Source: Mytilus edulis
Taxonomy: Eukaryota
Assembly (NCBI RefSeq): GCF_963676685.1
Contig: NC_092347.1
Span: 2,728,001-2,792,000 of the forward strand
DNA: 64,000 nt
Reading direction: 5' to 3'
Shown here: piece by piece, positions 2,411 to 50,600 of the stretch
How the letters are laid out: every line of letters begins with the position of its first letter
Numbering within the stretch: position 1 is the stretch's first letter
The notes under the pieces: generated by a model
Told to the model about the DNA's origin: nothing
What the model saw: only the letters and a program-made list of their open reading frames with translations
The model's database searches: none
Program-made: the position numbers and the translations under genes

Positions 2411-4599
2411 GTATTTTATTTTTGCTGGTCTGCTTTGTCTAAATGCTTTTATTTCTTTGTTCTTTTACGATTACGAAATAACACAATGTTGACGACTGTA
2501 ATCCTAATTTTGACATTTTTATCTATCATGATCGATTCACATATTATTGTCTTCATATAAGTTAGTGGTTTATCTATCTTTGAAACAAGATTTAATCTCC
2601 CATTTTAAGGACTTTGCTTTTTGAATTTTCCTCAGATAACAGTATTTTGTAATTTTATTATTTTCTACCTAAGAAAATGCTTCTACCTGTACCTTATGAG
2701 GAATTTGACAGTTGATATCAATGGTTTGATATTTGACTATTAGTTTGCCATTTAACTATAATAGACTTTGCGTTTTGAATTTTCCTCGGAGTCAAGTAAC
2801 TTTGTTAGTTTACTATTTCCGTTGTTTGTTTAACATTTGTCTACAAAAAAATATATCTCTATTTACAATTTTTGTCTCAGTTGACGTAGAAATCCATATA
2901 TTTGGAAAAAATGGAACTTAAATTTTTTTAATTTCGTTGTTAATTTTTGCATACTATTTTTTTTTTTTTTATCAATTTACAAATAGAACTCCAACTTTTT
3001 TTAGAAGTTTCCTTTAAGTAGTCAAACAGTAGCCCATTAGGTAATAGGTAATTAGGAAATATAAGGAAACTTTTAGAATGAATAAGTTTTTAAATAACTT
3101 TACTTTACATATTTGAATATAGAAGGGGTTCATCATGGGCAAAGGACTAATTTTGTCATTTGCATTTGAGTGAATTGTGTGGTATTTACATGGATTAACT
3201 CTACCTTAATCTGTTTAGAAATTAGATAACCTATAAGTTATGAAAAATTGGTTTTCAATAATTTATGTTCAAAGATTGATAAAACCCAAACGAATTTATT
3301 TTAGTTGTGAATCATTGAAATGTAAATATATTATAATGCTATTCTAATACCCCGATCAATATATAGATCTATTTTTAGGTCATCATATATGCACAAATAC
3401 TAAATTCCGTTTCCTCGCTCTAATAATGCTGTTGAATATTACAAATATGTGTAACATCTTAAACTATTGATTCAACAAAATGGAGGAAAACAGAAGGACT
3501 TCGCGTTCTTGAATGAGTACTCAGTACTAGTAAGAAAGGTAGTATCTTAATTATTTAGTAAACACGCCAAACAGGAAGTCGACATGACGTAATAATATTA
3601 TAGATAATTCTATAAAATTAACAGTATTTACAAATAAAACAATTCTGTTTCAAATACGTTCGATCAAACATGTAAATTTATGAATAAGGGGATGCAGGAT
3701 CAAAGTGAGGATTCCGGGGGTTGGAACCGCCTTTTTTCTGACGATCATTTTTAAAAGTAAATGCTGGCACGTTATGGTTGGAACTCTCCACATCTTGATT
3801 TAGGGTTCGCCCCCTTTTGAAAATTGCTGGATCCAATCATTGCAAATTAGATAAATATTCATCAAGATTCAAATACGGGGATCTGAACAACTAAAGGGTA
3901 CGAAACGAGTCGAGATCTATTATTATTCACTGTAATATAATTGTTTTGTAAAAATGATTACAAACTAAATAATAATTTGGTGTAGTAAAAGTTGTTCCAT
4001 TTCTTTTTAAAACTACCAACACAATAGCTTGTGTCTCTGATTGTTATTCCTCGAGGATGATATAATCAAAATAGTTCAATACTTTGGTATCACCTCGATA
4101 TCCCAAAGATACTTGTTTTTGAAACTAGCTGTTTTAAAACTGAAGAAATCATTCAAAAGTAATTCTGAATATATATATAAAAAATCAATGTGGTATGTTT
4201 GTGGCAATGCTAAGGAGACAATTCTCCACAAGAGACCAAATGACACAGAAACTAACAAGTATAGGTATCCGTACAGCCTTCAACAATGAGCAAATATCAC
4301 ACCACATAGTCAGCTATGAAAGACCCCGAAATGACAATGTAAAACAATTCAGCTCTGCGGTTGTATAAAGCTGCGCCCTGCGGATCATCTGGTTTTGTCT
4401 AGTTTCTGTTGAAGTAACTGCAACCAAGGTTAAAAAAGAATGCTAGAAACACCTTCAGTAAATACCGGTATACGTCATGACACATGTACTATTGATAACA
4501 TTACCGGTACTAATTTTCTTACACCAGATGCGCATTTCCACAATACATGTCTCTTCAGTGATGCTCGTGGCCAAAATATTTGAAATCCAAAGCTAATAA

Positions 4600-4790
4600 A
4601 AAGTAAAATCACAAAAATACTGAACACAGAGGAAAATCAATTCGGAAAGTCCATAATCACATGGCAATATCAAATAACAAAACGCATCAAAAACGAATGG
4701 ACAAGAACTGTCATATTCCTGACTTGGTACAGGCATTTTCAAATGTAGAAAATGGTGGATTGAACCTGGTTTTATAGCTAGCTAAACCTC
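4600..4790 (+). mobile_element. Abundant non-autonomous interspersed repeat (representative copy)
   Basis: Motif AAAGTAAAATCACAAAAATACTGAA...AACTGTCATATTCCTGACTTGGTACAGGCATTT...GGTGGATTGAACCTGG recurs at about 435-605(-), 1370-1460(-), 2560-2810(-), 5620-5690(+), 14745-14910(-), 17160-17560(-) and 61870-61990(+). Confidence 0.8.
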
Positions 4791-4855
4791 TATGATGAAG
4801 AGCTATAATCAAAAAGGTCATTCAAAAGTAAACAAAAAAGTAAACAAGAAAGAGC

Positions 4856-6275
4856 CTTGGCTCACACCGATCAACAAGCTATAAAGGGCCCCCAAATTAC
4901 TAGTATAAAACCACTCAAACGGGAAAACCAACGGTCTTCTCTATATAAAATAAAAAAACGAGAAACGAGAAACACGTAAAAATTACATAAACAAATGACA
5001 ACTACTAAACATCAGATTCCTGACTCAGAACAGGTGCAGATTAAGAACACACAAGCAGGGGTACTGGCCTAGTGCTTGTATATGAATACAAGTACTACAT
5101 TTGTATTTGAGCCAAGGCTCTCTTTACAAAAAAGATGAAGAGCTATAATCAAAAAGGTCCAAAAAGTAAAGCTAAATCCGTGAAAGGAATCAGAGCTTTG
5201 CATGATTTGTATTAATATTCGTCATACATTTTTTTCAGAATGCATTTTATCACAGAGCCAAATTTAGTATTATTTTTTCTGATGTACCTCTTCATGGACA
5301 GTTGTTACGGATTGTATTCAATTAATTGTAAGTTTACTCAGATAGTTACCAGTTTAGTGACCCATGCATAGTTACTGTGATGCTTTATTTTTGGCTACAT
5401 ATTCACACAGGTATAATATTATTAATGTCGGTTAGGTAAAACTGAGTCTACATAAAATATTTTGATAAACATTACGAATGTAGTTATAATTTTCATCTTA
5501 ATGATCGGTGACAAATGACAGCAAACAGAGATTTTGTACATGTGTTAGATTAATTGATAAAGAAATGAAAACAAAAACGAACTCAAACATACATAGAGAT
5601 GAACTTTCTGATAACAACTACCATATTCCTGACTTGGTACAGGACATTTTAAGATGGTGGATTGAACCTGACCAAACCTCATGTTTACATGACAATTTTA
5701 AAACATATTCCTAATATTATGTGTTCCTAACTAGTACATATTCTTCTCCGCTTCTAGTAACCGTGGAATTTCCATAAGTCATTATTAATAACCTGCTTAT
5801 TCATATTCGGATATGTCACAATCGGAGAAAATTTCACCGGAGAATACCTGCAAAAATTTAGACATATCCATAGACATCTGCAATACAGATATTCCATAAC
5901 GTTCATCCAAATTAAGATGTTCAGAATCACAATACTATCACATAGTGGTTTATAAGCCAGTGACCCTGCTTGTGTGTTCTTGGTTTCTTGATATGTATCA
6001 TAACCTAACCAGGGTTAGGTACTACAAATGTAGTACTTGTATTCATATACAAGCACTAGGCCAGTACCCCTGCTTGTGTGTTCTTAATTTGCACCTGTCC
6101 TAAGTCAAGAATCTAATGAACAGTAGTTGTCATTTGTTTATGTAATTTATACGTGTTTCTCGTTTCTCGTTTTTTTTAATTTTATATAGATTAGACCGTT
6201 GGTTTTCCCTTTTGAATGGTTTTACACTAGTAATTTTGGGGCCCTTTATATCGTGTTGTTCGGTGTGAGCCAAGG
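4856..6275. repeat. About 250-bp inverted duplication (4856-5105 / 6023-6275) flanking the start-codon exon of paralog A
   Basis: 5031-5105 is the reverse complement of 6023-6097 with 1 mismatch, and homology continues through the adjacent repeat. The left copy is bracketed by a 26-bp direct repeat (4794-4819 / 5134-5159). Confidence 0.9.
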
Positions 6276-9200
6276 CTCCGTACGCATGTTGAAGTCCGTA
6301 CATTGATCTATTTTTAAATTGTTATTTGGATGGAGAGTTCTCTCCTTGGCACTCACACCACATCTTCCTATATCTCTTAATTACTTGATATACCATAAGT
6401 AATGCAGTGTTCGATACTAACATCCATATACTAGCACTAGGCTGGCACCCTAGCCTGATAGATATGTGATATGTTCTGCAGTGTTCGGTACTGACCTTTT
6501 TTCTAACAAACGTTTCCTAAATTCTCCGTTAATAAATGTTAGGAAAATAAGGGTCCAAGGAAGTTGTATTTTTTGGCTATTTTGTTATGTCCCTTTTGGT
6601 CATGTAGCTCTTGCAAGGTTAGTCTTTTTTTCAAATGAAATTTATTTTTTTAGTTAAAATCACTTGCGTGTCGAATAAACAATCTAACCTATCAATCAGT
6701 TATCTTACTATTTCAGTACAGTTTGAGTCTCATTATTGTGACCAATACGTCAGACGACTTACAGAGAGTACATTTTATAATTTATCGTGGCATGGACAAA
6801 CTTCTCCTAAACTATGTGATTTTAGTTTTACTGGCGGAGAGAGTAGTGAGCATAGATCATATACAGTCTGCTTTGAGTCATTGGTATATGATTTACCATA
6901 TTCAGTAGGTGATATTATCTTGCAAGTAAAAAATGAGACGGGGAGTAAATCACAATGGGTAAGAGCAGTTTTATTTTTTGTTTTAATATTTTTAAAAGTT
7001 GTATCTCAGTTTCAGAGAATTTTTTGTTTAAATCAATGTGATCCTTTAAAAGGTAGAATTTATCCCTCCTTAAGACAAGATACTGGATTTACGTTGGTCA
7101 TTTTTTTTAAATTAAACAAAGCAATGCCAACTCTTTCAATTTGGATTTTCAGTTTGAAATGGGGATATTATTTTTGTAAAGTCTAGAAAAGTCAAATGTT
7201 TCAATACTATTGTAAGATGAAAAAGTCTTAGATAGCATGAACAATATAAAGTCCATAAAAGATCTTTGGTATTTTCTATATCCACATCTGATTAACGCCA
7301 TCTCTAGAATAGGCAGTTTCACAATAACTTCGAAACCCGGCTTTGATCGCTGATAAAACAGATGTTGATAATTAAGAGGGAGGTTTTGTGGAACACTTGG
7401 AAGACATACCAATATCCTGTTGTTTGTAAGGACACTTACGTAGTTTATGTATCCAATACAGTGATGGAAGATCCAGTTTTTTTTTATCCTTGGTTGAAAT
7501 TCCAAAGGAACATAGAACATACCTATGATTATCCAGGATTTCCTCTTGTGAAAGTGTCGTGAGGGTATATGTTGAGTTTCCGAGTGAATTCTCAATACCT
7601 AATAGACCTAATTCATTTATCAAGCAGTTTATGTAATGAGTTTTACATACAAAAAAGATTTTGTTTATGGATTTATCTACGGAGACAACAATATATTTTT
7701 CATGGAGGTAGGACACGTGTTTTGTAACATTTGGGTCTTTAAAGATTGACGTAGCATGGATATTGATAGATCCATTCAGTTTCTTAATTCTGATTTGAAT
7801 CAACGACCTCACAGCCGTAATCCATTCTGAATGAGCATCTACGTCTTCTTGCTTACGCTTCGCCCATTGCCTGTCATTATCCTGACTGAATCCACCAGTA
7901 TTTTAAAATTGTATTTCCAATTGATGGATTTAGGCTCACGATATTTCGGACCTTTGGATAACACATTTCGCCGGGAAGTGTTATTTAAAGTTTTGAGTAA
8001 ACTGACTAAGCGTTAGTCTTTTGAAGACCGTACGGGGGCCTATAGTTTTAAAATTCTGTGTCATTTAGTCCTATGAGGACGGTGGTGTCATTGGCAATCA
8101 TCTTCTTAATTTTATATTTTGTAATATACCGTATAATGTCTTATAGGAAAGGAATAGAACAATTAAAGTTGTTTTTCATCATGTTCATACCGTGAACTTA
8201 ACGTTGCGATTTGTGAGCTGTTATGCTATTCGAGACAAGGATTAACTTGATATAGTTAAGATAAATGTTGTTTGTGACACTAATTAGCACGACATTTACT
8301 GGATGACTTGATACTTTCGAAACGACGACAACGCTTCAGTTGAAATCATTGTAACTCTTATAACGCTTCCAATTTCATTTCCTGGTTTATAGGGGGATTT
8401 GTTTGCTTAATCTCTAAAATTGTGTATATAATTTGTAAATTTTTATCTGTAGGTTCATCTTTTTTCTATCTTTTAAACGTTTAATAGTTAGCTCGGCCTT
8501 TTAGAAATATTTTACATACTAGGAATTATTGCATAGAAGATTTCTCTGTGAGTAGATTTCGAGCCCTGATTTTGGCTATTGTTATTCATTTGTTTTAATC
8601 TACTGCAGTATTACACGGGACACGACAGATATATTGAGAAAACCTGCGTAAAGCAGGCGTACATGTTAACCATTTCCATTCTGCTACCTCATGGGTATAG
8701 AGAACCAATACCAAAACCTTACCTTATCATCAAAGTCACAGCATTTCGTTTTAGAGGTAATTAATATAGAATAAAGGCGCTACAGAAAAATATTTCTTTT
8801 AGCATGACAATGAGAAGACTGCAATAACATTCAATTGGGTGAGTTGGTGTACCTTTATTTTTCTCTCTCATGCTATCCAAATCTACAAAATGTTTAAATA
8901 CTGACTGAAAGTGATGTAAATGTGATAGACTGTAACCACTTTTCAATAAATAACTATATATACATAATAATCCATCAAAAATGTTATTTAACACTGTTTG
9001 CAGCTTGAAAAAGCTTACAAATTCTTCAGAATTTGGTCCACTTTTGAATGGGAACATATTGTTAACAAAACCGACAAAGTTACATCGAAATAAACATATT
9101 TATATTTGTTTCAGCGTAATTTTGTATTTGGTTTAGAATGCCCATTTAATACACCCACATTCATGAAAGGAAAGGGGAATGTAGTAACAACATTGGGAAC

Positions 9201-32100: not shown

Positions 32101-35100
32101 ACTGGCTGAATGTGCAATGGCAAATATTACATGCATATTCAGGAAGTTGGGAACGATTCATGCCAATCCTGATAAAAAATAAAGAAATATGCCTGAAGAA
32201 AAACAATAACAGAGTAAGTGTTCCTGCATTTTAACTTCAAATATTTCTTGTAGAGTGAGAAAAATGTTATGAAACACCAGCAAAAAAGATTAGATTGTTA
32301 TTCAGTCCTGACTTATACAGTGTTTCTGAAGATGGAGATTAGGTATGCAATAATGAGTTTTTAATTTGATAGAGTGTTGACTTTTAAATTGTAAAAGTTT
32401 AATGAGTTACTGTACGTTAATCCCTTTATTGTATAAAAATTCAACAATTGCTGTTCAAGTGCATAGCATAGCCATCTTTATCTTGCTGTACATGTATCCA
32501 GAGGCAATATATATATATATAAGAAGATGTGGTATGGGTGCCAATGAGACAACTCTCCATCCAAGTCACAATTTATTAAAGTAAATCATCATAGGTCAAA
32601 GTACGGACTTCAACACGGAGCAAGACTGTTATTAATGACAATTAAGAGAGTGAATAATATTATATAAACAAAATAGACATCATAATTAAAAGAAAGACAG
32701 ACAGTTTCTTCATCAAATATAATAAATTTTGGTATGATAACTAAAAATGTTTGAAATTGTTTTGAATTTGTCGTTACTTCTTTCAGATCAGGCCTATCCA
32801 GAAGCAAGAAAAAGAACAATTCATAGCACGTACATCTACAGAGAGAGACATGTTTTAAAAAACAGATTTATTTTCAATTTTAGAAAAATCTGTTGAACTT
32901 TTACTATTTCTTATCTGTTTATTTACATTTATATGTTGATATTTTGTTTTTTAAAATTGCTGCACAGTAATTGTATTCAGTCCCATATAACAAAATCAGC
33001 TAAAGAAATTGATATTTTCATATTTCAAGGGAGTGTCCTTTTGCATTGTTGATAGCAGATATAAGTATTGTCTTAAGTTGGGTTTAAAAACAGTCAGATC
33101 GCAACTTCAAATAATATACATTTTTATGAATGTTATATGTCATTAAATAGACATGAAAGATGGAAAATTATATAGGAACTCATTTTTTATGACCTAAATG
33201 TATTGTCAAGGTAAATTTCTTATTTGAACATATTATCAAAAACACTGCTGGTTTAAAATAAAATTATTCTATGTAGCCTAATGTAATCATACAGATCAGT
33301 ATATTTTTTCCTAAACAAATTTTACATATTTTTATAACCAGAATAAATTTATTCTGTTTCTCAACCTTAACATAATTACTGTACTATCAAAATACATTTA
33401 TTTTATATATCATAATACTTTTAATCCACATTGAATGTAGAATAAATTTATTCTGTGTCGCCTCCTTAATATGATAACTGTACTTTCAGAATAAATTTAT
33501 TTTATATATTATTATACAAGACAAAAATCACATTGAACATAGAATAAATTTATTCTGTGTCTCAACCTCACCATACAGATTACATTACTTTCAAAATAAA
33601 TTTATTTTATATATTATTATAATCATAAATGACATTAAATGTGAAATAAATTTATTCTGTATCACAGCCTCGCCATACAGATTACTGGACTTTCAAAATA
33701 AATTTATTTTAAATATTGTTATAATCATAAATGACATTAAATGTAGAATAAATTTATTCTATGATTTTCTCTAACTGATAATAATATCAAGGCTCTTTAT
33801 AATAAATTTATTTTATAAATGATTAAATACAGAAAGCACCATGCATTTAGAATAAATTTATTCTAAGTTGCATCATTTACGGAGAGTTAAATGAAAATGG
33901 ACAGTAAAGTGTAGAATTCAGTATAAATTTATTTTGAAATGTATCAAATAAATACTAATATAACAGAATTGTCTTTGTTTTTCATGATTTTTACTCAAAT
34001 ACATTGGTTATAGAATAAATTTATTACGTTCTGGTCCTATTTTTGCCTCTAATTGCACTTGTCAGAAATTAGAGTGAAAAAAGAGGAAAATTGTTTTTTT
34101 CCTTTTTTATTCTGCTCTCTGTTTATAGCAGGTTGTGTGCTGCTGCAATTTTCTCAGTATTTACCAGTCCGGTTCTCTCAAATACAGTTGATCGTAAGTA
34201 AAATATACTTTACAAAAAGACACATGCATAACAACTTTGAGCTCTCTGTATATATATAATGTTTTAAAATAATTACCAGAATGAACAACGTTGAAAACGT
34301 AAGATTATCAACCAGTGGACAAACTTGCTGGACATTGTATTTGTTAGAAAAAGAACTCGTTTCGACTACGCAAATTATCAAAAAGTATGTAACTGTTTTG
34401 TAGAGTTAACGTATAATTACGAAAAAGCAATATTTTGCATGCAACAAATCGAAATCTTCAATAAATTACATCGCAAATGACAGTTTACTTGTAAAAAGCG
34501 GCAAAATTCGACAAAAAACATTCTTGCAAGACAATTACCAGAAACCGTGACATTTTTAGTTGTGGTTTGAGTGCTGCCAAAATTCGGTTTCAATATGTCA
34601 TATTTACATGTAAGTACTTTGTGAGCATAATATATGAAAATGAAAATTTATATAAACTTATATTTTAAAGACCTATACATTTTGATAACTTACCATTTTC
34701 CTAAATCTGACCATGATCAAGACTATTTATTTTTGTCAAAAAATACCTTTGGTAGTTACATCAACGCATATTCAGTAATGTTGTTATACTTTATATCATT
34801 CATGCGAATTTTCGCGGATTTTATTCTTTTTCGAAGAGAACAAACACCCCCGCCAAAACTCGGGGAGTTATCAGGTACTCCGGAGGATAAACAGATCCTA
34901 CTCCTCATATGATAACCATCGTGTTGCTGTAGGGCACATGTGAGGATCAAAATGCATTAAAAATAAATATATTCGGTAGCTAATGAGAGTAAATATAATC
35001 TCAGGATTAGATGTAGCATGTCATTTACTAAATACTTGAGTTTATTTGGTCCTCCATATATGTGCGTTTCTGAAAGTTCAATAACTGTCTGAAATGTTCG

Positions 35101-38100: not shown

Positions 38101-40449
38101 TTGTGACTTTACCCTGCTCTTTCTAAGCAATAAATGATACAGTCTCTTCTAGTGTGCTATCGGTCTTGGAGTCACCTACATATAGCGGGTCAGACATAAT
38201 TTCTGGGTCTGCAATACCTCTTACTAAATTGTCCTTGATTATCTAATCACTTTAAAAAAATATATGGTTGCAAACCATTTCTTTGCATGTTGCTTTAAAC
38301 TGACAGAGTAATGCTTGGCCTCTGAGACTGGCCAACAAAACCTGATATTTGACCCAGGTGATTTAGGCATTCTGTTCAATTTTATGCGTTGGACCAGTAT
38401 GTTTTCTTCTTTGACGGACAGCCTTTTAATAGCATTTAAAAGATCTATCTCTATCGTACTGGCGACATCACCTTGAAGGTCACGCATCATAATGCCTATA
38501 CGAAGATTAGTGTCACAGCAGTAGAAAAGGGCAGTGGACAAGACATTGTCTGTGATGGCCATCCCTGTTTTATACATTTTCCACTGTCTGGTGAATGCCT
38601 ACCATCGATCTTGATCACATCCTGCAGCTATAATAGGAGGGTCTAACTTGTGTGTTGCTGGTTGGGCAAGAGATGGGTGGACTGTTCTGTCATGAATCTG
38701 CAGAGCAGCGGTAAATGCTTCATCCAAAGATTTCCAATTATAGCCGTATACGGGGCACTGTAGAACTGGCATATTGTGAAATTCACCATGTTTCAGCTGT
38801 TAGTTGAGTATCAGTCATAAATGAGAGTCAACATCTTCCTAGGTTTATATCTTTAAGTTTAAGGATGACTGATACCTGAAATGTTTATATACACAGTACA
38901 TAGTAAATGTTAAGTTTCTTATTATAAAACTAACAAACAAACAAAAAATGAATGGGTAATTTCGGAAATTATTGTTCTCACTTTATAGTTATCTTTTTAA
39001 TTCTAAACCACGTCTTAGTCTTACAATGTAATAAGCAAAGTATTTTAAAACTATTTGAAGGCATTATTGAGTTCTTCGATATATATGTTGTAGATTGGAA
39101 TGTGGGAGATTATATACAGAACACAGCCTTAGAAATTTTACCCTTTCTGATTGCTGCTGTTGTATTATTCTGTTGCTTTAGAAATGAAAAGCTGAGAAAC
39201 GGATTTTTTACTCGTATACGAAAACTTCTTAAAATTGGCAGTTCCAGCTCGAGTCAACAATCTACAGATACTCTAAGAGAAGGGTCAAGACGATTATCCA
39301 TCAATGAAAACCGTCTTAACTACGAATCAACGGGTAAAACATTAATTCTTATCATTATTGTCATCACTTGTCAAAATTAGCATTTTTTATATTAGTATAC
39401 ATGTAGCAACATAAGTTACATTTCAAAGCGTAAAAGGTTTTCGCTAAATCTTGCTTTGACTTTTTGTTAGATATTCGGAATCCTCTTGTTTTGTCCATGT
39501 ACTACTATTGAAATTTTTGCCCGCTTACTCCACTTTTCTTTTCATAATTTAATTACAAATCAGATTAAAAGAACACTTTTGAAAATCTTATCAAACCCTT
39601 TCTTCATATTTTTTTTAAAAGTACCATATTATGAATGTTAAATATATATGAAAATTCGATAGAAAATTAATTGTGTATTTCCAAATTTCCATGGGCAAAT
39701 TTGTTATAGCTTTAATACCTAAACAACAAGCACAACCCTACAATTTGCTTCTGTTTTTATTAGTCCCGTCATTTTCAACAGTCTTTTGAAAAGCCTGTTA
39801 TTTTGAAAAATAGTAGCGAAAATCCTCAAGCATATTGTGTGAATGAAATTACTGAAGGAATAGACGTACGTTTTACGTGAATGTGTGTGAAGTATAGAGT
39901 TCAAAACTATACCGGTAATCAAAATATAAGAGCCGGCTAAATAGCTTTAGTTGAAAAGTGCACATTATACAAAACATTGTACAAAACATGCAAATGTACA
40001 ATAGATATATAATACAACAAACTTTACCATTTAATAATGAAAAAAAATATCAAAAGACTACTAAAAATTATTGTATATGTAAGTTTAAGAGATTCGTGTT
40101 TTATTATTGTAAAGATAATTAGAATAACTATGTGAGAAGTGTTTACAGTTGGTTCAAAGAATACTTTGAAATGTTTTCTTTCTAAAGATATTTATCTTTA
40201 TTTATTTATCTTATTGTTATTGTATTTTATTCAGATATAACACATATGCAAGACAACGATTCAAGAACGTCATCAGAATTCTCATTGACGTTTCCATCTG
40301 AACAAGGAGAGTTTGCCACGGGACAATGTGTTCCTTCCGCGCCATACGAATTATTGCCACCTGAACCGCCTTCAAATGGACCACAAGCACCACCTCCAAG
40401 CTACGATGACGTGGTTGGAAAATCGCAAATGAAATCGGGACTTGGATAA
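23176..40449 (+). CDS. Type I membrane protein, paralog B (signal-peptide exon split by the foldback element)
   Basis: Ancestral start 23176-23186 plus 34132-34193 (MYNRLCAAAIFSVFTSPVLSNTVD), then exons 35324-35553 (LSWYGKTSPHLCTFNFTGG...CFES.EYDLP, homologous to paralog A), 36308-36461, 39094-39333 (TM ILPFLIAAVVLFCCF) and 40235-40449 (VPSAPY...PPPSYDDV, TAA). All phases are compatible. A possible replacement first exon at 30020-30132 is in frame. Confidence 0.8.
23187..34128. mobile_element. 10.9-kb foldback-type DNA element with about 0.8-0.9 kb internally repetitive TIRs and CAG target-site duplication
   Basis: Left arm 23187-~24080 is the reverse complement of right arm ~33340-34128 (termini CTATAAAC...GTTTATAG). 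Arms contain 100-bp tandem units with palindromic AATAAATTTATT cores. CAG at 23184-23186 and 34129-34131. Removing the element restores ATG TAT AAC AGG TTG TGT. Confidence 0.85.
24170..26638 (-). pseudogene. Decayed spliced gene or lncRNA inside the foldback element
   Basis: Exon-like blocks with GT/AG ends at 26638-26534 (MTDSGHQK...KKLE|gttagt), 25972-25896 (FFMFKTGIKELETLIASVTK*), about 25135-25000 and about 24376 downward. In-frame stops are present. Confidence 0.35.
36762..37233 (+). mobile_element. Helentron-associated non-autonomous element (HINE/pearl-like), 2 x 169-bp core repeats
   Basis: 5' TTTATGCCCCAC...GGGGCAT, (TCCG/TCTG)n tract, cores at 36864 and 37033, subterminal GTGGGGGCA, 3' hairpin GTGTACTATGGACAC, T-rich flanks. 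Confidence 0.85.
37790..38800 (-). mobile_element. Decayed LTR-retrotransposon gag (Ty3/Gypsy-like) in an intron of paralog B
   Basis: W.AFTRQWKMYKTGM, LFYCCD.NL, DLLNAIKRLSVKEENILV, GIADPEI and TLEETV.FIA, plus frameshifted Cys/His knuckle-like segments near 37850-38020. Multiple stops. Confidence 0.7.
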
Positions 40450-40954
40450 AAATAGAATTTTAACTTTTATCTTGAAAAATTTATTTTATATAATACTTGT
40501 GCAATATAACATTAAGGCTATAACATCTATAGATTTGGGTTACAGTCATTTCCATTTCCAAAGAAAGAACACATACACTTTTGCATTATAGTATTTTCTT
40601 TTTTAGAATTCCGATCTTCCCTTTTCCACAAAAAGTCGATGATCTCTAATTGTAATTTTTCAGTTCTTTCAATTAACGTAAGGTGTATTCCAATTCTAAA
40701 GAAAGAGGTCTTAATGTATTACTAGTAATGTTTCATTTTATTTTTTTTCGCCACAATAAAAAAAAAATCATTGGTTGACTTTAAATTTTCCCTGGCGGAG
40801 TACTAGTATTGCAAAAATGACTTATTTCTGAAACATAGAACACATTATAGACCGCCTTGGTAGTCTCATGAAAGCCTGTTTATCTCGAATGCATGATTTT
40901 TGCGCGAATGTGGCGTAAAGCATTAATCAACAATCTTTCAACCAATCTATCAAG

Positions 40955-41150
40955 CGATTGAAGGAGGTCATAGGTTTCGAATCGAGGCAGGGTCTAACGA
41001 AAGACTACGAAATTGGTATGTGCTGATTTTCTGCTAAGAACTAGGAAGTTAGAGGGAAATCTGGTTGGCTCGTACTGGGACTAATACATTCGGGTAGAGA
41101 GATATATGTCTTCCTGCGGACTGTTACTAGCGCATTACAAGTCCGGCTTA
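40955..41150 (+). mobile_element. Degenerate SINE (Meta-SINE-like central domain)
   Basis: B-box-like GGTTTCGAATC followed by AAAGACTACGAAATTGGTATGTGCTG...CTGCTAAG...CTGGTTGGCTCG...GCGGACTGTT. Confidence 0.55.
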
Positions 41151-42499
41151 TTGTGTATAGATATAAGAAGATGTGGTATAAGTGCCAATGAGACAACTAC
41201 ATCCAAGTCAGTCTATTTCTATTTTTATATTTATGGGGAAAGACATGCTATTACACCTGATGGAAATCGACAATTCATCGTTATGATGGGGAGGGGGCAT
41301 CGGTGTAACAACTTTTAGTATAAAATGACATGAAGAACAAGACATCATCTTCTCTTTTTTAAACTACATGTTCATTAAAAATTCTCTTTAACTGCATGAT
41401 TTATTCACTTCTGAAATAAAAACTCTTTAAATTAGCAAAATATATTCAGCAACCCTCCATTTAAAAAAAGATGCAGATAGCCTCACGGTAGAAAATACGA
41501 ATTAAATACTTCTAGAAAAAATGCACTAGTATTGTCTTTAAACAGTAAAAGATATATTTTTTAACTAATGTTGAAAAAAAAAATGTACTAAATAGTATAC
41601 AGTATGACATTTTTCTGGTTGTTTCACATTTGACATTTGTCAAGAGTAAAACAGTTCATTGTCGATTGAAGTTACCTTTTCGTTATTACTCAGTTTTCTC
41701 CTTAGATCATGTACTTTGGATAACAGCGAAACAATAAATTAAAATGATAGGGAACGATTCTGTCACCTCTTTTAAATCACCAGTCAGTTGACAGACTTTT
41801 TCGAAACACGTGACTGACTTGTTCAAATATGAGTAAAAGTGAAACATTAGCCATATTCTTAAGTATCTGAGAAATTTTTGGGATGTCTAGAAATACTTTC
41901 GCTAGTCATGTCTTGGTGTACAGTGTCAACATGTGAAAATGATACTATTGGGATTTTTTTCTGAATTAACCGTCGTATATTAAGGAACTTCAAATCCAAT
42001 AAAATCACTCAAACGACCGACTTCAAGGTTTTAAGTACACGACAAACTAAATAAACATGAGCATACAGACCTTAAAAGAATATAGCCAACAGCTTGCATT
42101 GCATGATGGAGTTGGGAATGTAGTTTCTTTAACATTATTGCGCATGTACAAAAATAGTAGGGCGTGTTTGTATGCGACACACGTAATGCAACATTAGCTA
42201 GTATGTTTGGTTTAATTATTATTCTTAAATTTAAATCTTATTATTGAAATTACGGGGGCTTTCAAATAAAGAAGATATAAACCAGTAATAGTTTAATTTT
42301 GGCAGCTTGAATTAACATATAAGATACATAAATAAGTATAATTTACACACAAAATATTCATATAATACAATACAAAAGATACACATACGAATAATCTAAA
42401 TAAAGCGGGCCTAAAAGAAATAACAAAATGCGCCAAACAACCCGCCAAAAAAGATTAACAAAAACAAATTGTACACACACGCAAATAGAAGAATTGAAA

Positions 42500-42695
42500 C
42501 CCAAGGAATGAGACACTTCCTTGTAAGTTCCAGTTGAATATAAAAGACATAAGAAACTTCCTTTATACGACACACCCAGAGAATATGACGAACTTCCCTG
42601 TAAGTGCACTAACTTCAAGTAAGCTTATGATCCCAAAGAATAGTACACTCCTTTGTAAGATCAAAATCCTAAGGGATAAATTGCTCCCTTATAAG
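42500..42695 (-). ncRNA. Array of 4-5 related bulged stem-loops in the element's 3' UTR
   Basis: Sense-strand units CUUA(C/U)-stem-loop-stem-GG at 42668-42695, 42632-42659, 42575-42604 and 42500-42527, plus a degenerate one at 42543-42568. Compensatory changes and G-U pairs. Confidence 0.6.
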
Positions 42696-42783
42696 ATTAA
42701 CAACGATGACCTCCTAACAATATACAAAGCATACAAACAAAAATTTAGATGATTATCATAAAACAAAAGGTAGATAATACAGA

Positions 42784-43307
42784 TTATATATGACTCATAA
42801 CATGTTGAAAGCATCTGCGAAGCTCGTATAGATCAGCTTCATTAAGATGCAACCCTCCGTCCTTAAAGGCAAAAAGAGACCTAATAGGACGTCCTCTTAC
42901 AAGAAACCTTTTATATGATTTTATAAAAATAATGTTATATTTAGAACATACAGAAAGTAATTGCCTATTAATATTAGCACATTTAAAACCAGTTAAATCA
43001 AAATCTACAGGTCTTGGTAAAATAGAAGATATATAAAGCTTGACATGCGGAGACAAAGATTTAAATTTTACAAATAACTCTCTAAAATCAGCAATGATAC
43101 GATCTACAGAAAAGTCTCTTACATCGTTAGTTCCAACATGAATAAGACAGTAAGAATAGTTACTTAAGTTTATTTCACCTTGATCCAGTTTCTTGTTAAT
43201 AGTGGAAATACGAGCACCACTGTAAGCTTGAAGGTCCATGTTAGAAATGCCAGATAAATGTTTACAGATTGAATCGGATAACACCAGTACATGTTTGTTG
43301 GTTATGT
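42784..43307 (-). CDS. SGNH/GDSL hydrolase (esterase) of the YR element
   Basis: Block I LSDSI, block II SGARI, block III HVGTND, block V DGGLHLN. Intact ORF from the acceptor ttttttcag|AC at 43307. Confidence 0.9.
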
Positions 43308-43318
43308 CTGAAAAAATA

Positions 43319-44289
43319 TTATAAAAGTTTGGCCATTGACTCTGCAACAGATATTTTCTCCTGCATAGTAAAATTCAAATATAGCTTATAGGCATCACTT
43401 GCCCAGTCACCGTGCAGCTGTATCAGTTCACTAGGGACTCTAGCCTGAAAGGCAAATGACGCACCTCCCCGTCTAAAAGAATGTGTAGAGTAAAGGCGAG
43501 TATCTCGTCCAGTCAATGAAATGATACGCTTAAGTTTAGATTGAAACTGTTTGTAAGTTACTGTTTTAAGACTAGCATTTCTCTTGATAACAAAAGCAGG
43601 AGATTCTTCAGGAGCAGGAATCATGCGGCACATTCTATTGTATGCAGTAACGGGACATAAAATAGAATCATCTATTTTGACCAAAGGTATTTTTAAAATT
43701 CGTTCACCACATTGTATAGTTTTAGTCCATTCAAACACCACAATAGCTACTCTTTCATGCATAAAAACTTTGCCTCTAGTAAGTTGCCTTTTATAATCAA
43801 AAGAATCTACAGAATCTGGCACTAAATTAGACTTACGAGACATAAGAAAAAAGGCAAATAAAAATAAACACCAATACACAATATCTGTACAATTATCAAG
43901 GTCTAAAAATTTAAGCATCTCTTTTAGCAAATCGGGAGTAATAGGCCTAGCTTGTCTAGGACAGTGTTGTTTGACTCTAGAAATTCCCGCCATTAACAAC
44001 TTAAATTCAAAATTATCTAAAGGGGGAAATGGAAGATCTAAATAAAAATGCATAATTTTAACACCATTGATATAATTCCTGATAGAATCAGTCGATTTGA
44101 ATGATCGACTTAAAAATTGCGCATAACAGTTAATCGTTTTAAAAGTGACAGGAATAGGAGCAACATCAAAATAAAAACAAAAGAGCAAAAAGGCTCTCCA
44201 TTGTGAAACTAAATTTTTCTTAGTTCCTACTGCAAACGCAGACTTAGTAGACTTTTTAACATCTTTCTCTAACTGTTTAAACTGAACAT
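43319..44289 (-). CDS. Tyrosine recombinase (phage-integrase family) of a DIRS/Ngaro-like element
   Basis: Uninterrupted ORF from the acceptor ttttcag|AT at 44289, with N-terminal core-binding region (SAFAVGTKKNLVSQW...CYAQFL...IRNYINGV) and catalytic R (MSRKSNL), K (WTKT), HSFRRGG, HGDW and Y (SDAYKLY). Confidence 0.93.
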
Positions 44290-44816
44290 CTGAAAAAAGG
44301 AATTATGTATATATATGTATATATAAATCACCAACTGTGACTAAAAGAAAATAGGCTGTCCTCAACTTCAAATTCCTCTAAATTCGAGGAAACAGAGTTA
44401 AAAAATTGAGTTCGATGCAAATCAGACAAATGCCAACGACCCTAAAAATTTTACGTCTAATTCAAACAATCGAAATCAAATAATAAAGATATAACATAAC
44501 AGTGTGAGCAGGTTTCACTCACTTACAAATTTATTTATATTTTATACCTTAAGGCTATCCAGTCAAATTAACAGACGAATTTCAGCCAAGTAATTACTGG
44601 TTTTTAAATTATAAAAACAAACCTATGTATCAACAGTATTGTGTGAATTATCAAAATCATTGTAATAAATTACTTTGCTTTTCGTGGGCCCTCAGGTCAA
44701 GGACGTATACAAATCCTTGTCTTATCTTATATTCAAAATAGAATAAAAACAGGAAAAAGCAGAAAAATGCATATCACGTACAGTTACAGAAAGTTCAAAC
44801 TGTCAAGAACGATGTA

Positions 44817-47330
44817 CTTCTTCTTCTTCTTCTTCTGGAAGTCCACCCTATCTACAGGGTCACCGCATTTAAATTTTTTGTTTATTTTTAAAATTGCGTT
44901 ATTTAAAATTCTATCTACTGGTTAAAATTTAAAATAATATTAACAGAGTTAGAATAGGATAAAACTAAATATTAGTTAAAACAGGAACTTGTATGTACAC
45001 TATACATTTAAAATTATAAAATGGATAAAAGTAATATCTTATCAGTTGTTTAAATTCTCTTAGCAAAGGAAAGTGAAAGGAACTACTAATCTGTACTAGT
45101 AATTGGTTAAATTTATGGACTAGTATGGTTTCTTAATAAGTTTAAATATATGTAATTATTAATAGATAAAATGGTAAGGGATACGAATAAAACAAGAAAC
45201 TTGTAAAAATTAGTTTTAAGTAAAACAGTAGAGTTTGTCAATAGAATTTGGGTCTATAAGATTATTTACAGGGGTAATTAATTCATATGCTCTAGTTATG
45301 GTTTAACTATGAATTACTTAGCTACATCACCTAGTATTAATTAAGTATATAGACAAAGTAGTATAATACTTGTTATATGTTACATGCCCACGACTGACAG
45401 CCACTTGTAGTTTAAGCTCAGAACTCAACTGATTGTTCATTTGTTTTCCAAAAGTTGGGTTCTTTTAGCATGCAATGCATAGATCCAGTCTTTGCAGATT
45501 CGTTCTAAGTCTCTCTGCTGAGGCACAGTTATAAGGTCGTTACTAGAACAGTCAACCAATAATTCTAGAAGATCCTCATCAGAATCAATTATACTGCAAT
45601 AGTGGATATGATTATCCTCTAGTAGGGATTTTAGTCTATCTTGATGAATTTTTCTCACACAATTCAGACTTTCACAGTTGATTAGGAAATGTTTATAATC
45701 CTCAGGTCCTACCATGCACAATTTGCATTCTGCAGATTTTTTTCCGTCAAATCGGTTGGTAATACTTTGGGTTTTGTAAGTTCCTGTAAGTATCCTGGAT
45801 TTTATTATCCCTTTGCTAACATCTCTTTTATTATCTCTGACACTGCTCCAACAAAAGTTTGGTTTTTTAAAGTTCCAGTTGTTTACTTCCATATATTTGA
45901 GTGTTGATTTGCTTCTAGCAGATTCGGTCCATCTGTTTTTCCAGGTTTTGTCTATAACATCATGAGTCAATCGTTTCCAATTTTTCTCTGGATTTAGTAT
46001 AATCTCATGTGCGGATGGAAGATAATAAGATTTGAGAGTTTTGTCCACATTTATGTACCAACTATTTGATTTATCATCTTTTGTAGCTAGCTGTCTAATT
46101 CCAATTTTACACTCAATTGAGTTGGGATCTTTTGAAATTCATAGAAATAGGGAAATGACAGCTTTATGTACGAGTTGCTCAATAGATTCGGCTCCGAGTA
46201 AGATATAGATAGCAGCATCTGCAGTTCTTTGTGGTAAGGATAGAATTTGTTTAAAAGTTTTTTTCTGAAAAGCTTCTAATTTTTGGATATCAGTTTTAGT
46301 AATGTTGAGAATTTCAATTCCATAGATCATTCTTGGTATAACATAAGTCCGCCATAGTTTATACGATAATAGTGGATTTATACCATTTATTCCATGTAAT
46401 CCAGCTCCTAATAGGGAATACATTGTAGCTCTTGCTACAGAAATTCTATTCTCTACATTTGGATTATTTTTCTCTTGTCTTTCAATTCCTAAATGTTTAA
46501 TGTTTTGCTTTTCGTCTATTTTTTCATTAACAAGTTGAAGATTTATATCTTTATTCTTCTTGTTTATCATTAGAATTTCAGTCTTTTTGCTGTTTATCTT
46601 TACCCGATCGTTTTTGGTACAGTTTTCAATGATGCGGAGTTGGGTTGAGGCATCATGTTCTGAGCCCGGCCAGCACATAGCATTATATATATATGTCATC
46701 TGCGCACGTTGGGCAACCCACATAATTGGTTCCAATTTTAATTCTTATGTTTGTGGATTCAAGAGTATTTAGGATATTCTTATTATAGGCCTTGTAAAAA
46801 TTGGCAGAGAGAATTCCACCTTGTTTGACTCCCTGCTCATTTACAAATGTTTCCGAGATATATCCTTGAGATTTAACTTGTGTAGTTGTTTTGTTATATA
46901 GTTCCTTAATTAGTAACCATGAAGCTCCATTAATTCCTTGATGATATAATTTCCAAAATAGGTGTATATGGTCTACCACGTCAAATGCTTTTTCTGCATC
47001 CAGAGTTATTAGAATGAGACACTCGTTTTTATCTTTGGCTTCGTTAATTGCTTCAGAGATGAGAAGAGCAATATTAATAGAGGATGCACCCTTAGTGAAA
47101 CCTTTCTGAAGCTTGTTTTGATGTTTATTTAGTGTACCCTCGATTCTAGCTCTAATACAAAGCTCCAAAATCTTACAAATGATGGAAATGACTGTGATGC
47201 CTCTATAGTTGGATGGAATAGTAGGGTCTTTGTCTTTTTTGTGGACAGGGGTCAGCAGACCTTTTTTTGATGATTTCAGGAACATGCTTTGTATAGAATA
47301 TATTGTTAATTAAGGTAACTAGGAATTCAG
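44817..47330 (-). mobile_element. 5'-truncated non-LTR retrotransposon (RTEX/RTE-like LINE), RT plus C-terminal CCHC, frameshifted
   Basis: NYRGIT, QKGFTKG, LDAEKAFDVV, GVKQGGILS, CPTCADD, YSLLGAGLHG.NG.NP and CKLC...HFLINC. (GAA)n tail at about 44817-44835. An (AT)n expansion frameshifts just after ADD. Confidence 0.92.
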
Positions 47331-47608
47331 TCAACTCTGTTCCACCATAAATTAGATGTTCTGCAGTTAAATCTTTTACATCCCCAGCCTTTTTTCTTTT
47401 TAATATTGAAATACGCTTGGTGATTTCTGTTGAGGTAACAGGTTGAATTGTTATTTATGATGTACATATTTCCGGATCTGAAGATGTTTTCCGATATTGA
47501 CATGATTTTACATAAATTTGGCGGGGAAAATCTCCCACAATTCTCTGATATTTGTAAACAAAGTGATGTTTCGTAATCATTAAAACACGTGTGTAAGAAG
47601 CTGCTAGG
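47330..47608 (+). promoter_or_regulatory. Candidate compact NEIL1 promoter/5' region
   Basis: About 280 bp between the LINE 5' end and the ATG, with an E2F-like TTTGGCGGGGAAAA (47517-47530), an ETS-like TTCCGG (about 47470) and CACGTG (47586). Motif matches only. Confidence 0.35.
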
Positions 47609-50600
47609 ATGCCTGAAGGACCCGAATTGTATATGTCTGCACAGTTTATCAACCAAACTTGTAGAAACAATCTCTTTTCAGGGCAAATATTTAAATCATC
47701 AGTCAGTCGACAGCCAGATATTGATTGGAATGAAGAAACATACACAATATCTGCTGTGACGAGAGGGAAAGAAATAAAATTAACGTTACAATCGATTACA
47801 AATGATCAAAAAGAAAAGAAGAAATGTGCAAAAAATCAAAACAAAACACTTGACATTGTTTTCCAGTTTGGTATGTCTGGTAAATTTGATTTTTATGAAG
47901 CAAATGAACTTCAGAAACATGCTCATTTGAACTTTTTCACCAAAACTGAAAATAACAAAAGTGTTCCAATGGTGTTGAGTTTTGTAGACTACAGACGTTT
48001 TGGGAAATGGCAGCCTAATGGAAACTGGTCTGTGGAACGAGGACCCTGTGTACTCACAGATTACGTTCCATTTAGGTATTTATAAACAAATTGACACTTG
48101 TATTTCATGGAATGAGTTAGTCCAAATAATTATGCCGTCTAGAAAGGCTATTTTTGATTTTGCTGTTACGCGTCCAAATTTTTTTTATCAAAAAGCCGTA
48201 CTAAAACGGCATAATTATTTGGACTAGGAATGAGTAAGAAAAGGAATGATCAGAGGCAGATTTAGTGGGACCGCTGCAACTCTTTTCTGGGAAAAAAATT
48301 GATTGATTATATAGTGAATCTTTGAAGCTTGGCTGTATACCCTCTAAGGCATTTAGTTGGCCCCACTTATGAAAATTTCTGGATCCGCCTCTGATGATGA
48401 CAGTATAACACAAATCTATAAATGGCCGCCAAGTGCAATGAAAAATAATAATATGTAATTTAAATTACTTAACCATGTGAACATGTTTTGGAAGCTGTGA
48501 TTTAAATTATATGAAAATGTCCCCTAACCACTGAAATTCAGTTACGACCTGAGATTTCATTCTTCAATACAGGTCATGACCTGCGTTTTCATTGTCATAC
48601 ATGTAGGTTGACAGGTTTTATTTTGAAACAAAAATTCATACAGTTAATACCTAATGTTTATTTATTAATTTTGTTATTTTCCTTTTCAGAGAAAATATAT
48701 TAAAGAATGTTGAGCTCTCTGTGTTCAGAAAACCTATTTGTGAAGTACTTTTGAATCAGAAGTATTTTAATGGTATTGGAAACTATCTCAGAGCAGAAAT
48801 ATGTTACAGGTAAAGTGATACTGAGATTATATTTGTCTAAAAGAAGTTGAAAAGTGATACTTTGGCATGCTGTTTACGGCACTGTCAACAATGTACAATG
48901 TATGAGTTTTTTAAAGGTCAATTTAAGATAAGCATTAGTCATCATGATCATGACCAGTGGTACAATGTAGGTGAATGAAGTTTGGTATGCAGTTGTATAA
49001 ACATTCAAACTTTACATGATTCCATGAACCTATAGATAAAAGGCAACCATGGACTTTGCAATATTTTGGTTCATTCTACATGTATAGTACTTTTACATTC
49101 CTATAACTTATAAACTTTTGCCTAGTTTTGTTTGAATTAAATCCCTTGAATAATTGTCAAGTTCTGTATAGAATAGTCAAAAGCCATTAATAAATAACAC
49201 TTAAAATGGATCTACCGATGACTGAACCGCTTCGCAGAGATCAAGTACATGGAGCACTAAATTTACTGTACAATAAAATAAATTCCTGACATATATTACA
49301 TTGTCAAAAAATGTATATGCTTTTGCCCTATTGATTCTATTGATGCCAGATTGATGCCAGATAACAGCAATATTTTTCTTTCATACTGTGAATTCATTTA
49401 TTTTCATGGGTATCAATTTTCGTTGATTGCTGAAAACTTGCATATTTGTGGAAATTTGATTTTGTGGTTTTGATTTTGTGGTTTTGCCAATCTCTGTATA
49501 TAAAGCCTATTAAAAATATGTTATTCGTTGAACATTTGAATTTGTTGTTCACCTGTATCCAAGTACCCAACAAAAAAGCGAATAATAATGAATCCACATG
49601 GGGTATACACAGTGAGTATTAACTTACATGTAAGTGTATGAAACACATGTTGATAGTTGTCTTTCTTTGAACTGTTGTCTGAGGACAGTGAGGTTCCATT
49701 CTTGTTTTAAATATACATGGATTGCATTAACTAAAATGTATTAATCTCTTTTTCCTGACTTTGTACATGAATATCTGGATATTATGATGTCACATCTTAT
49801 TTCTAATAAATTGATGGCAAAACAAAATCAGAAGTTTAATACATGGGAAAAACTGTGATAAAGAGAGGTGAAAGATATATACATGTACCAAAGAGATATA
49901 CAAACTCACTAAAAAACAAACTGACTGGGGATTATGTCACATTCTAACACAAATTTTTGACAGAGATCTTAAAAAATGTTAGTATAGGACACAGACTGCC
50001 TAATTCCAAACAATGAAAAATTGAATTGAAATTGATATTTTGGCTTCAAATTGAATAAATGAAGCATTGTGTATAAAGTTATTATACCCCCGCTTTGAAA
50101 AAAAGGGGGGTATACTGTTTTACCTCTGTCTGTCCTTCCGTCAGTCTGTCAGTCAGTCCGTCCGTCCCATGAATATTTTTCGTCACATTTTTCTCAGGAA
50201 CTACACTACCAGGATTTCTGAAATTTAGTTTCATAGTTTATATATGTCAGCTTTACCGTGTGATGCATTTTCAGATTCATCACTGGACAACTTCCTGTTT
50301 ACCGAACACTTGTATCATTTTACACATGATAGCCAAGTTGAAAATTTCCGTCACATTTTCTCAGGAACTATACTAAAAGGATTTCTAAAATTTGGTTTCA
50401 GGCTTGATATAAGTCCGCTATACCGTGTGATGCCTTTTCAAATTCATCACTCGACAACTTCCTGTTTACCGAACACTTGCATATTTTTACACTATTAATA
50501 TTATCCACTTGCGGCGGGGGTATCATCAGTGAGCAGTAGCTCACAGTTTCACTTATTATAAGATTATTTTAAATTTTGAATTTCAAAATAATTGGTAGGT

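Follow-up and report, generated by a model that had tools for sequence, protein, structure and literature searches.

How tyrosine recombinase (YR) retrotransposons with split direct repeats express downstream ORFs that lack a Met, and how they rebuild their ends, are largely unworked questions. Spliceosomal introns reportedly occur in some YR retrotransposons, as the abstract of Goodwin and Poulter from 2004 is said to state. The accessible part of PMC4157794 holds nothing further on splicing. Several related systems are described in the accessible parts of the published record. Xenopus DIRS-53_XT and DIRS-54_XT have split direct repeats in the order A1..B1A2B2 and encode gag, RT/RH, YR, and an SGNH hydrolase of unproven function (PMC9210276); neither "splic" nor "intron" occurs in the accessible text of that paper. 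Type 2b and type 1 Ngaros of Cafeteria burkhardae show ~2 kb 5' deletions covering ORF1, alongside isolated AB repeats (PMC8547959), and an A2-B2 unit is termed a SIRE (PMC6681497). The model for DIRS-1 posits a cDNA that is linear and single-stranded, whose ends are rebuilt from internal repeats, and a circle integrated by the YR, with an unknown primer (PMC7192593). The ORF1p esterase of ZfL2-1 (L2/CR1/RTEX; PDB 4C1B) is preceded by a coiled coil and basic peptides (PMC3905857), and the env/ORF3 of retroviruses and LTR retrotransposons is a 3' ORF expressed from a spliced message and sometimes encodes an SGNH esterase (PMC5408684).

The window analysed here is a 64,000-nucleotide stretch of the Mytilus edulis genome (contig NC_092347.1, positions 2,728,001 to 2,792,000, forward strand). 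The feature that we studied in it belongs to a known family, the hydrolase-bearing Ngaro-like retrotransposons, and the best overall explanation, to which we assign a probability of roughly 0.8, is that it is a recent, truncated Ngaro from a family in which one gag leader serves two phase-1 splice acceptors. A DNA search of the M. edulis genome recovered relatives of the window copy at 95-99% identity, among them a full-length Ngaro (L031, C3:82551253-82557204) arranged as A1-gag-RT/RH-YR-hydrolase-B1-A2-spacer (62 nt)-B2, in which A1 and A2 are 100% and B1 and B2 99.5% identical. This single element supplies both the full-length copy and the split direct repeats that the original prediction had proposed to look for. 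The order gag, RT/RNase H, YR on a single strand is found in L031 and L041, and the L031 pol stops ~40 nt before the YR. Within pol, the Pfam domain RVT_1 scores above its cut-off and RNase H below; the gag-like ORF has no Pfam match, and no methyltransferase, a trait of DIRS and PAT, was found at E 0.01 in two pol ORFs. Repeats, ORF order, and methyltransferase absence in the full-length relatives fit the Ngaro identity that had been suggested, and on sequence grounds the window family is Ngaro-like (order DIRS).

We examined 48 hydrolase loci, 40 taken from a hydrolase search (150 matches listed) and 8 collected earlier, which fall into 10 families; family counts below use one representative per family. 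Solo A-spacer-B units of family 1 (L046, L047, and L048 on C11, C12, and C14) complement the A-interior-B arrangement seen in the window, and four copies (L032, L043, L070, and L073) are embedded in tandem satellite arrays. At ~6000-6520 of L073/L074, a related SGNH ORF, whose phase-1 acceptor is strong, sits behind a 536-nt tandem array, with no YR or A repeat upstream.

The window copy consists of repeat A, a joint of 3 nt, the final 2,192 nt of the interior (99.4% identical to L031), and repeat B (Table 1). About 3.15 kb of the full-length element is gone: gag together with the splice donor it contains, RT, and the greater part of RNase H. The copy also lacks the A2-spacer-B2 block seen in full-length elements, and one A and one B remain. 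The ~37 surviving codons of RT/RNase H reported earlier are a real tail (44441-44328), colinear with the L031 pol, and the description of the copy as recently truncated agrees with a divergence of only ~0.4-0.6%. Its repeat A contains a single GTAAGT (44526), with no ATG upstream of it. A splicing origin for the deletion itself is ruled out, as its ends are not GT..AG, and none of the six other internal deletions checked in relatives is GT..AG either. The window copy is a recent, 5'-deleted retrotransposon copy that is likely nonfunctional and was probably dead on arrival.

Table 1. Positions of the Ngaro features within the window
Feature	Position	Strand	Basis or remark
Terminal repeat A, 181 nt	44443..44623	-	98-99% identity to A1 and A2 of full-length L031
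TATA-like TATAAA in repeat A	44546 and 44539	-	Motif search
Deletion joint, 3 nt ggg (first g possibly templated)	44440..44442	-	Between last A base and RNase H tail
Last RT/RNase H ORF codons including stop	44328..44439	-	Colinear with L031 pol
YR phase-1 splice acceptor	44289..44310 (AG 44291-44290)	-	Same phase in relatives
Tyrosine recombinase exon, 323 aa from acceptor Asp, predicted Cre-like fold	43319..44289	-	
Hydrolase phase-1 splice acceptor, 12 nt past YR stop	43307..43325	-	Homologous acceptor used exactly in spliced copy L054
SGNH/GDSL hydrolase exon, private Gly159-to-Asp	42784..43307	-	Pfam Lipase_GDSL_2 E 2.9e-9
Terminal repeat B, 188 nt, TAATT junction core at end	42248..42435	-	

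Both ORFs of the window copy are open and lack a convincing Met of their own, as first proposed. The YR frame runs from 44302 to 43319 on the minus strand (327 aa stop to stop), and its first in-frame Met is residue 80, which a profile alignment to the Cre N-terminal helices places beyond most of the Cre-like core-binding helices. The acceptor ttttttcag/AT, whose first exon base is 44289 in phase 1, has the top score among 14 nearby AGs. For the hydrolase (43374-42784, minus strand, 196 aa), the first in-frame Met is residue 24, past the catalytic Ser13, and the phase-1 acceptor tttttcag/AC, with first exon base 43307, scores best of 7 nearby AGs. By its predicted structure (pLDDT 77; Foldseek match to Cre/Tre at E 9e-9, TM ~0.46), the YR is a tyrosine recombinase with a Cre-like fold; the profile match to Cre is at E 0.0025, Pfam Phage_integrase reaches only E 0.075, and sequence matches in the PDB at E > 0.1 were disregarded as chance. 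The residues R152, K190, H270, R273, W296, and Y304, which we take to be catalytic by analogy with Cre, are all present, and the R-K-H-R-H/W-Y set is invariant across 8 aligned YR sequences. The hydrolase exceeds the cut-off of PF13472 (Lipase_GDSL_2), and its nearest solved structure is 4C1B, a LINE ORF1-encoded protein (E 9e-7). Its presumed catalytic residues S13, G31, N61, and H154 are present and invariant in 9 sequences, among which the acid residue is not invariant. The earlier statement that all catalytic residues are intact holds for both enzymes with one qualification, namely that position 159 of the window hydrolase is Asp, a change private to this copy at a site that is Gly in all 8 other aligned families.

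In this family, a single gag leader is likely spliced onto one or the other of the two phase-1 acceptors, yielding the recombinase or the esterase. The single upstream phase-1 donor that had been postulated is found in L031 at gag codon 108 (AAAG/gtgaga, phase 1), within the stretch deleted from the window copy. Across families, the best hydrolase acceptor is in phase 1 in 10/10, compared with 36/78 of all nearby AGs, and the best YR acceptor in 7/9, compared with 46/103, by an acceptor score that is crude; in the other 2/9 families the best YR AG is not in phase 1. The top gag donor by matrix score is in phase 1 in 8/8 families and weak in one. Metagenome contigs yielded 80 loci, 63 of them scored and the remainder without a YR start or upstream room; the best YR acceptor is in phase 1 in 52/63 scored loci versus 194/467 AGs, the rows being partly duplicated and not independent. 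For pol, which has its own early Met, the best AG of a candidate acceptor is in phase 1 in 4/7 families.

The most direct evidence comes from L054 (C13), a copy in a sister family which, relative to the 99% identical L053, lacks exactly 3,839 nt, from the gag donor to the hydrolase acceptor. Its join reads GAAAG/TAATG, where the parent has the donor GAAAG/gtgagg and the acceptor ttgcag/TAATG; all four repeats are retained, and an in-frame 284-aa fusion results. Because the missing stretch coincides exactly with the donor-to-acceptor interval, L054 is a retrotransposed spliced mRNA. A second copy, L229 (family 8, 93-96%), has the same join at the exact length, with two mismatches in the first five exon-2 bases. 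The public gene model XP_071142525.1 (P0001), itself a prediction, equals exon 1 plus the hydrolase of the intron-bearing L056 with 0 mismatches and differs from L054 by 4; its single-sequence fold is poor (pLDDT 43), the sole confident part being a helix at ~65-105. Six other candidates (L096, L226, L230-232, and L237) were rejected as spliced copies, as they stop near a donor and run on into unrelated DNA. Expression controlled by splicing, as originally supposed, is thereby shown in genomic DNA for a sister-family hydrolase, and splicing of the gag leader to the hydrolase is very probable for the family as a whole. For the YR we infer the equivalent joint, which the acceptor phases make probable, since neither the 89 matches listed in the gag-region searches nor the 48 other hydrolase loci include a copy spliced from gag to YR. 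An early in-frame Met occurs in some families (hydrolase residue 2 in family 3; YR residues 9 and 16 in families 8 and 9), so these three could also initiate internally.

The products would be leader-YR and leader-esterase fusions, and the latter would rebuild the layout of a helical domain plus an esterase known from the ORF1p of L2/CR1 elements. In L031, L040, L056, L075, and L080, the gag leader opens with a basic R..(N/D)YK motif, after which come an acidic stretch and a helix rich in charged residues. Around codon 130, downstream of the donor, the gag of L031, the full-length copy of family 1, has a frameshift in an A-run, so that leader-YR and leader-esterase would still be possible from this copy and full Gag would not. 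Three further gene models (P0003, P0004, and P0022) join pieces of the family-3 gag leader or hydrolase to other sequence (a fibrinogen domain, COG8) and are likely annotation chimeras.

RNA depth at the predicted sites is 1-3 overall, too sparse to show either family joint. No joint at the predicted sites is present in the raw reads on the full-length element (66 and 53) or in two sets of contigs. In window positions 38500-49500, where depth on the element is ~1 and its flanks are barely covered, a check for spliced reads into 44289 and 43307, which the original prediction had called for, returned none. Reads on the window copy are mostly antisense, as calibrated on the neighbouring plus-strand gene; contigs X1 and X2 span the acceptors unspliced and may be DNA. 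That neighbour (47609-48073 and from 48688 onward, plus strand) is an expressed NEIL1/Fpg-like DNA glycosylase gene (Fapy_DNA_glyco, E 5e-12) with an intron in the reads. A broken LINE lies between it and the Ngaro (45437-47450, minus strand; RVT_1 E 1.7e-15, a weak zf-RVT, a stop, and frameshifts), starting ~150 nt upstream of the NEIL1-like ATG, head to head, and ending in a (GAA)n 3' tail (~44817-44836) ~190 nt upstream of the Ngaro A repeat. On the other side are a small spliced host gene (38952-40449, plus strand) with a hydrophobic stretch, PPxY-like motifs, and an intron at 39332-40234 in contig X3, and an imperfect tandem array of ~102-nt units (33327-34026) with the internal palindrome AATAAATTTATT.

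The truncation point of the window copy is not random: the deletion begins at the end of repeat A, as it does in most 5'-deleted relatives. Our tally, whose sampling is hydrolase-based, covers 47 loci, namely the window copy and 46 of the 48 loci; L073 and L074, which have a hydrolase and no YR or A, were excluded, and L082, which has no full-length reference, was judged from its pol match. A left A is present in 41 of them: its normal 5' continuation follows in 16, the break falls at -3..0 nt of the A end in 20, the spacer specific to A2 comes next in 3, and the break lies within A in 2. Of the 25 sampled copies in which the left A is not followed by its usual sequence, 20 thus have their breakpoint at the A end, and the points at which the interior resumes differ. 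The normally continuing group includes the spliced L054, as well as L067 and L069, which are deleted further in. Joints at the A end have 0-7 nt of microhomology or 2-12 nt inserts. Contigs of another sample (run X2 on L031) contain two more family-1 deletions joined at the A end, with joints 3062-7525 and 4554-7525, and in L055 (1785-7377) the A end is joined to an inverted 3.5-kb interior segment, then to the forward 3' part. LINE-1 twin priming produces a comparable 5' inversion.

Directly behind A2 lies a C-rich tract. CCC-N-CCC occurs within 2 nt of the A2 end in 9/9 families, whereas the 64-kb window, counted on both strands (128,000 strand-bases), has 9 such sites in all. Four C-runs are present in 7/9 families and three full runs in 2/9; the four runs persist although the loops between them vary in length (1 to 9 nt). 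Counted by hand, 440 kb contain 36 four-run motifs, 20 of them at A2 ends; the window contains none. In the metagenome, L198 has the tract directly behind A2; L156, L162, and L189 have it between two B copies, and L149 has none. The window copy itself has no such tract. On the complementary strand, four G3 runs with short loops form a G-quadruplex pattern in 7/9 families. In L076, L077, and L089, the spacer of A2 and its tract lie behind the left A, which indicates that a left A can come from A2.

These observations suggest, tentatively and at somewhat less than even odds, that Ngaro follows a retrovirus-like programme in which one gag leader is spliced to the recombinase or the esterase, and a G-quadruplex behind A2 creates a plus-strand strong-stop DNA that jumps to the other end of the cDNA. 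The left A would be copied from A2. The minus-strand cDNA would fold a G-quadruplex at the C-tract, and plus-strand synthesis through B1-A2 would stop at the A end; the stopped piece would normally anneal to A1, closing the circle. Were the first-strand cDNA incomplete, the plus-strand end would instead be joined by microhomology or short inserts before integration, giving an A followed by a truncated interior. Loss of A2-spacer-B2 would occur by recombination between B1 and B2 or by resolution of a two-junction circle. A G-quadruplex stop is possible, on the motif pattern, as the cause of the truncations. If this scheme is true, the plus-strand stop sets where repeat A ends, and failed jumps yield a class of LINE-like 5'-truncated copies with a perfect left end.

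It is also a credible reading, if a doubtful one that falls clearly short of an even chance, that splicing is real and the A-end joins arise otherwise, with the C-tract acting as a primer-binding, cleavage, or protein-binding site, or with the A end being fragile or cut by the recombinase and deletions following integration. The sequence of the tract also suits priming, the copies with only A..B (the window copy, L051, L061, and L088) are consistent with a cDNA begun at the end of A2, and the joints resemble ordinary end-joining. Most A-end-joined copies, however, retain B1-A2-spacer-B2, a block that would be missing from such a cDNA; the A2 spacer behind the left A in L076, L077, and L089 cannot be produced by a postintegration deletion at A1; and loop lengths range from 1 to 9 nt while four runs are kept. 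An account in which the YR is not spliced at all is improbable. The YR would then be translated from an ATG at the acceptor (44289) followed by a -1 frameshift at U_UUA_AAC four codons on, or by internal or non-AUG initiation; ribosomes would reach the hydrolase through a shift of frame at the stop codon of the YR. Family 1 does have this ATG together with a U_UUA_AAC heptamer in the phase needed to enter the YR frame, and YR ORFs are described as frameshifted relative to pol in the accessible text of PMC3783388. The ATG-plus-heptamer is nevertheless absent in the 8 other families, the downstream structure is not unusual (z -0.88), and the exact donor-to-acceptor copy L054 is left unexplained.

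Very improbable is the idea that this copy has been domesticated, or captured by a host exon splicing into its acceptors, which the original prediction had entertained. Both ORFs are open with intact acceptors, and the LINE and the start of the NEIL1-like gene upstream on that strand could supply transcription. Against this, open frames are expected at such low divergence, and a full-length Ngaro with 99.4% identity to the window copy exists elsewhere in the genome; we therefore do not regard the copy as domesticated. Relative to L031 and L032, it has 8 private substitutions in 2,192 nt, 6 of them coding, which divide into 5 nonsynonymous and 1 synonymous and strike an otherwise invariant Gly; the numbers are small, and the pattern fits drift rather than selection. 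The dN/dS comparison suggested as a test of domestication gives, on these small counts, no sign of the purifying selection expected of a single old host copy. Capture, for its part, is opposed by the lack of any read joint into 44289 or 43307 at the window locus, while the neighbouring host intron is seen in 4 and 2 reads of the same data, and by the position of both flanking genes on the opposite strand. A-end joins explain open stretches of YR plus hydrolase without RT in genomes, and such stretches should not be read as domesticated genes.

The favoured reading is a truncated Ngaro whose family likely splices one gag leader onto two acceptors. A spliced genomic copy shows where the recombinase and esterase begin, information that biochemical work on either will need, and connects the esterase with the ORF1p organisation of L2/CR1 LINEs; joins at the A end, together with the tract behind A2, offer a concrete, testable step of second-strand synthesis. 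The main-text passages of the literature searched contain no description of the gag-leader splice, the A-end joins, or the tract behind A2, although prior mention is possible.

Compared with the systems introduced above, as far as their accessible texts describe them, the mussel family resembles DIRS-53_XT and DIRS-54_XT in its repeats and in its ORF order, with the hydrolase last; the Xenopus ORFs overlap, whereas those of the mussel have hardly any overlap and begin at splice acceptors, and the mussel genome contains a spliced copy (PMC9210276). The 5'-deleted Ngaros of C. burkhardae are like the window copy in their 5' deletion and AB repeats, but those deletions were read in terms of target preference, and the accessible text states no A-end breakpoints or tract after A2 (PMC8547959). 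DIRS-1 has inverted repeats and an ICR, with no plus-strand stop signal described in the accessible text, while the mussel family has split direct repeats (PMC7192593). With respect to env/ORF3 (PMC5408684), the difference is that in the mussel family the integration enzyme itself appears to depend on splicing, with two acceptors sharing one coding leader. The layout of ZfL2-1 is what the gag-leader splice would create in the mussel family; in ZfL2-1 it is encoded by one ORF of a non-LTR element, whereas the putative mussel esterase would be assembled by splicing (PMC3905857).
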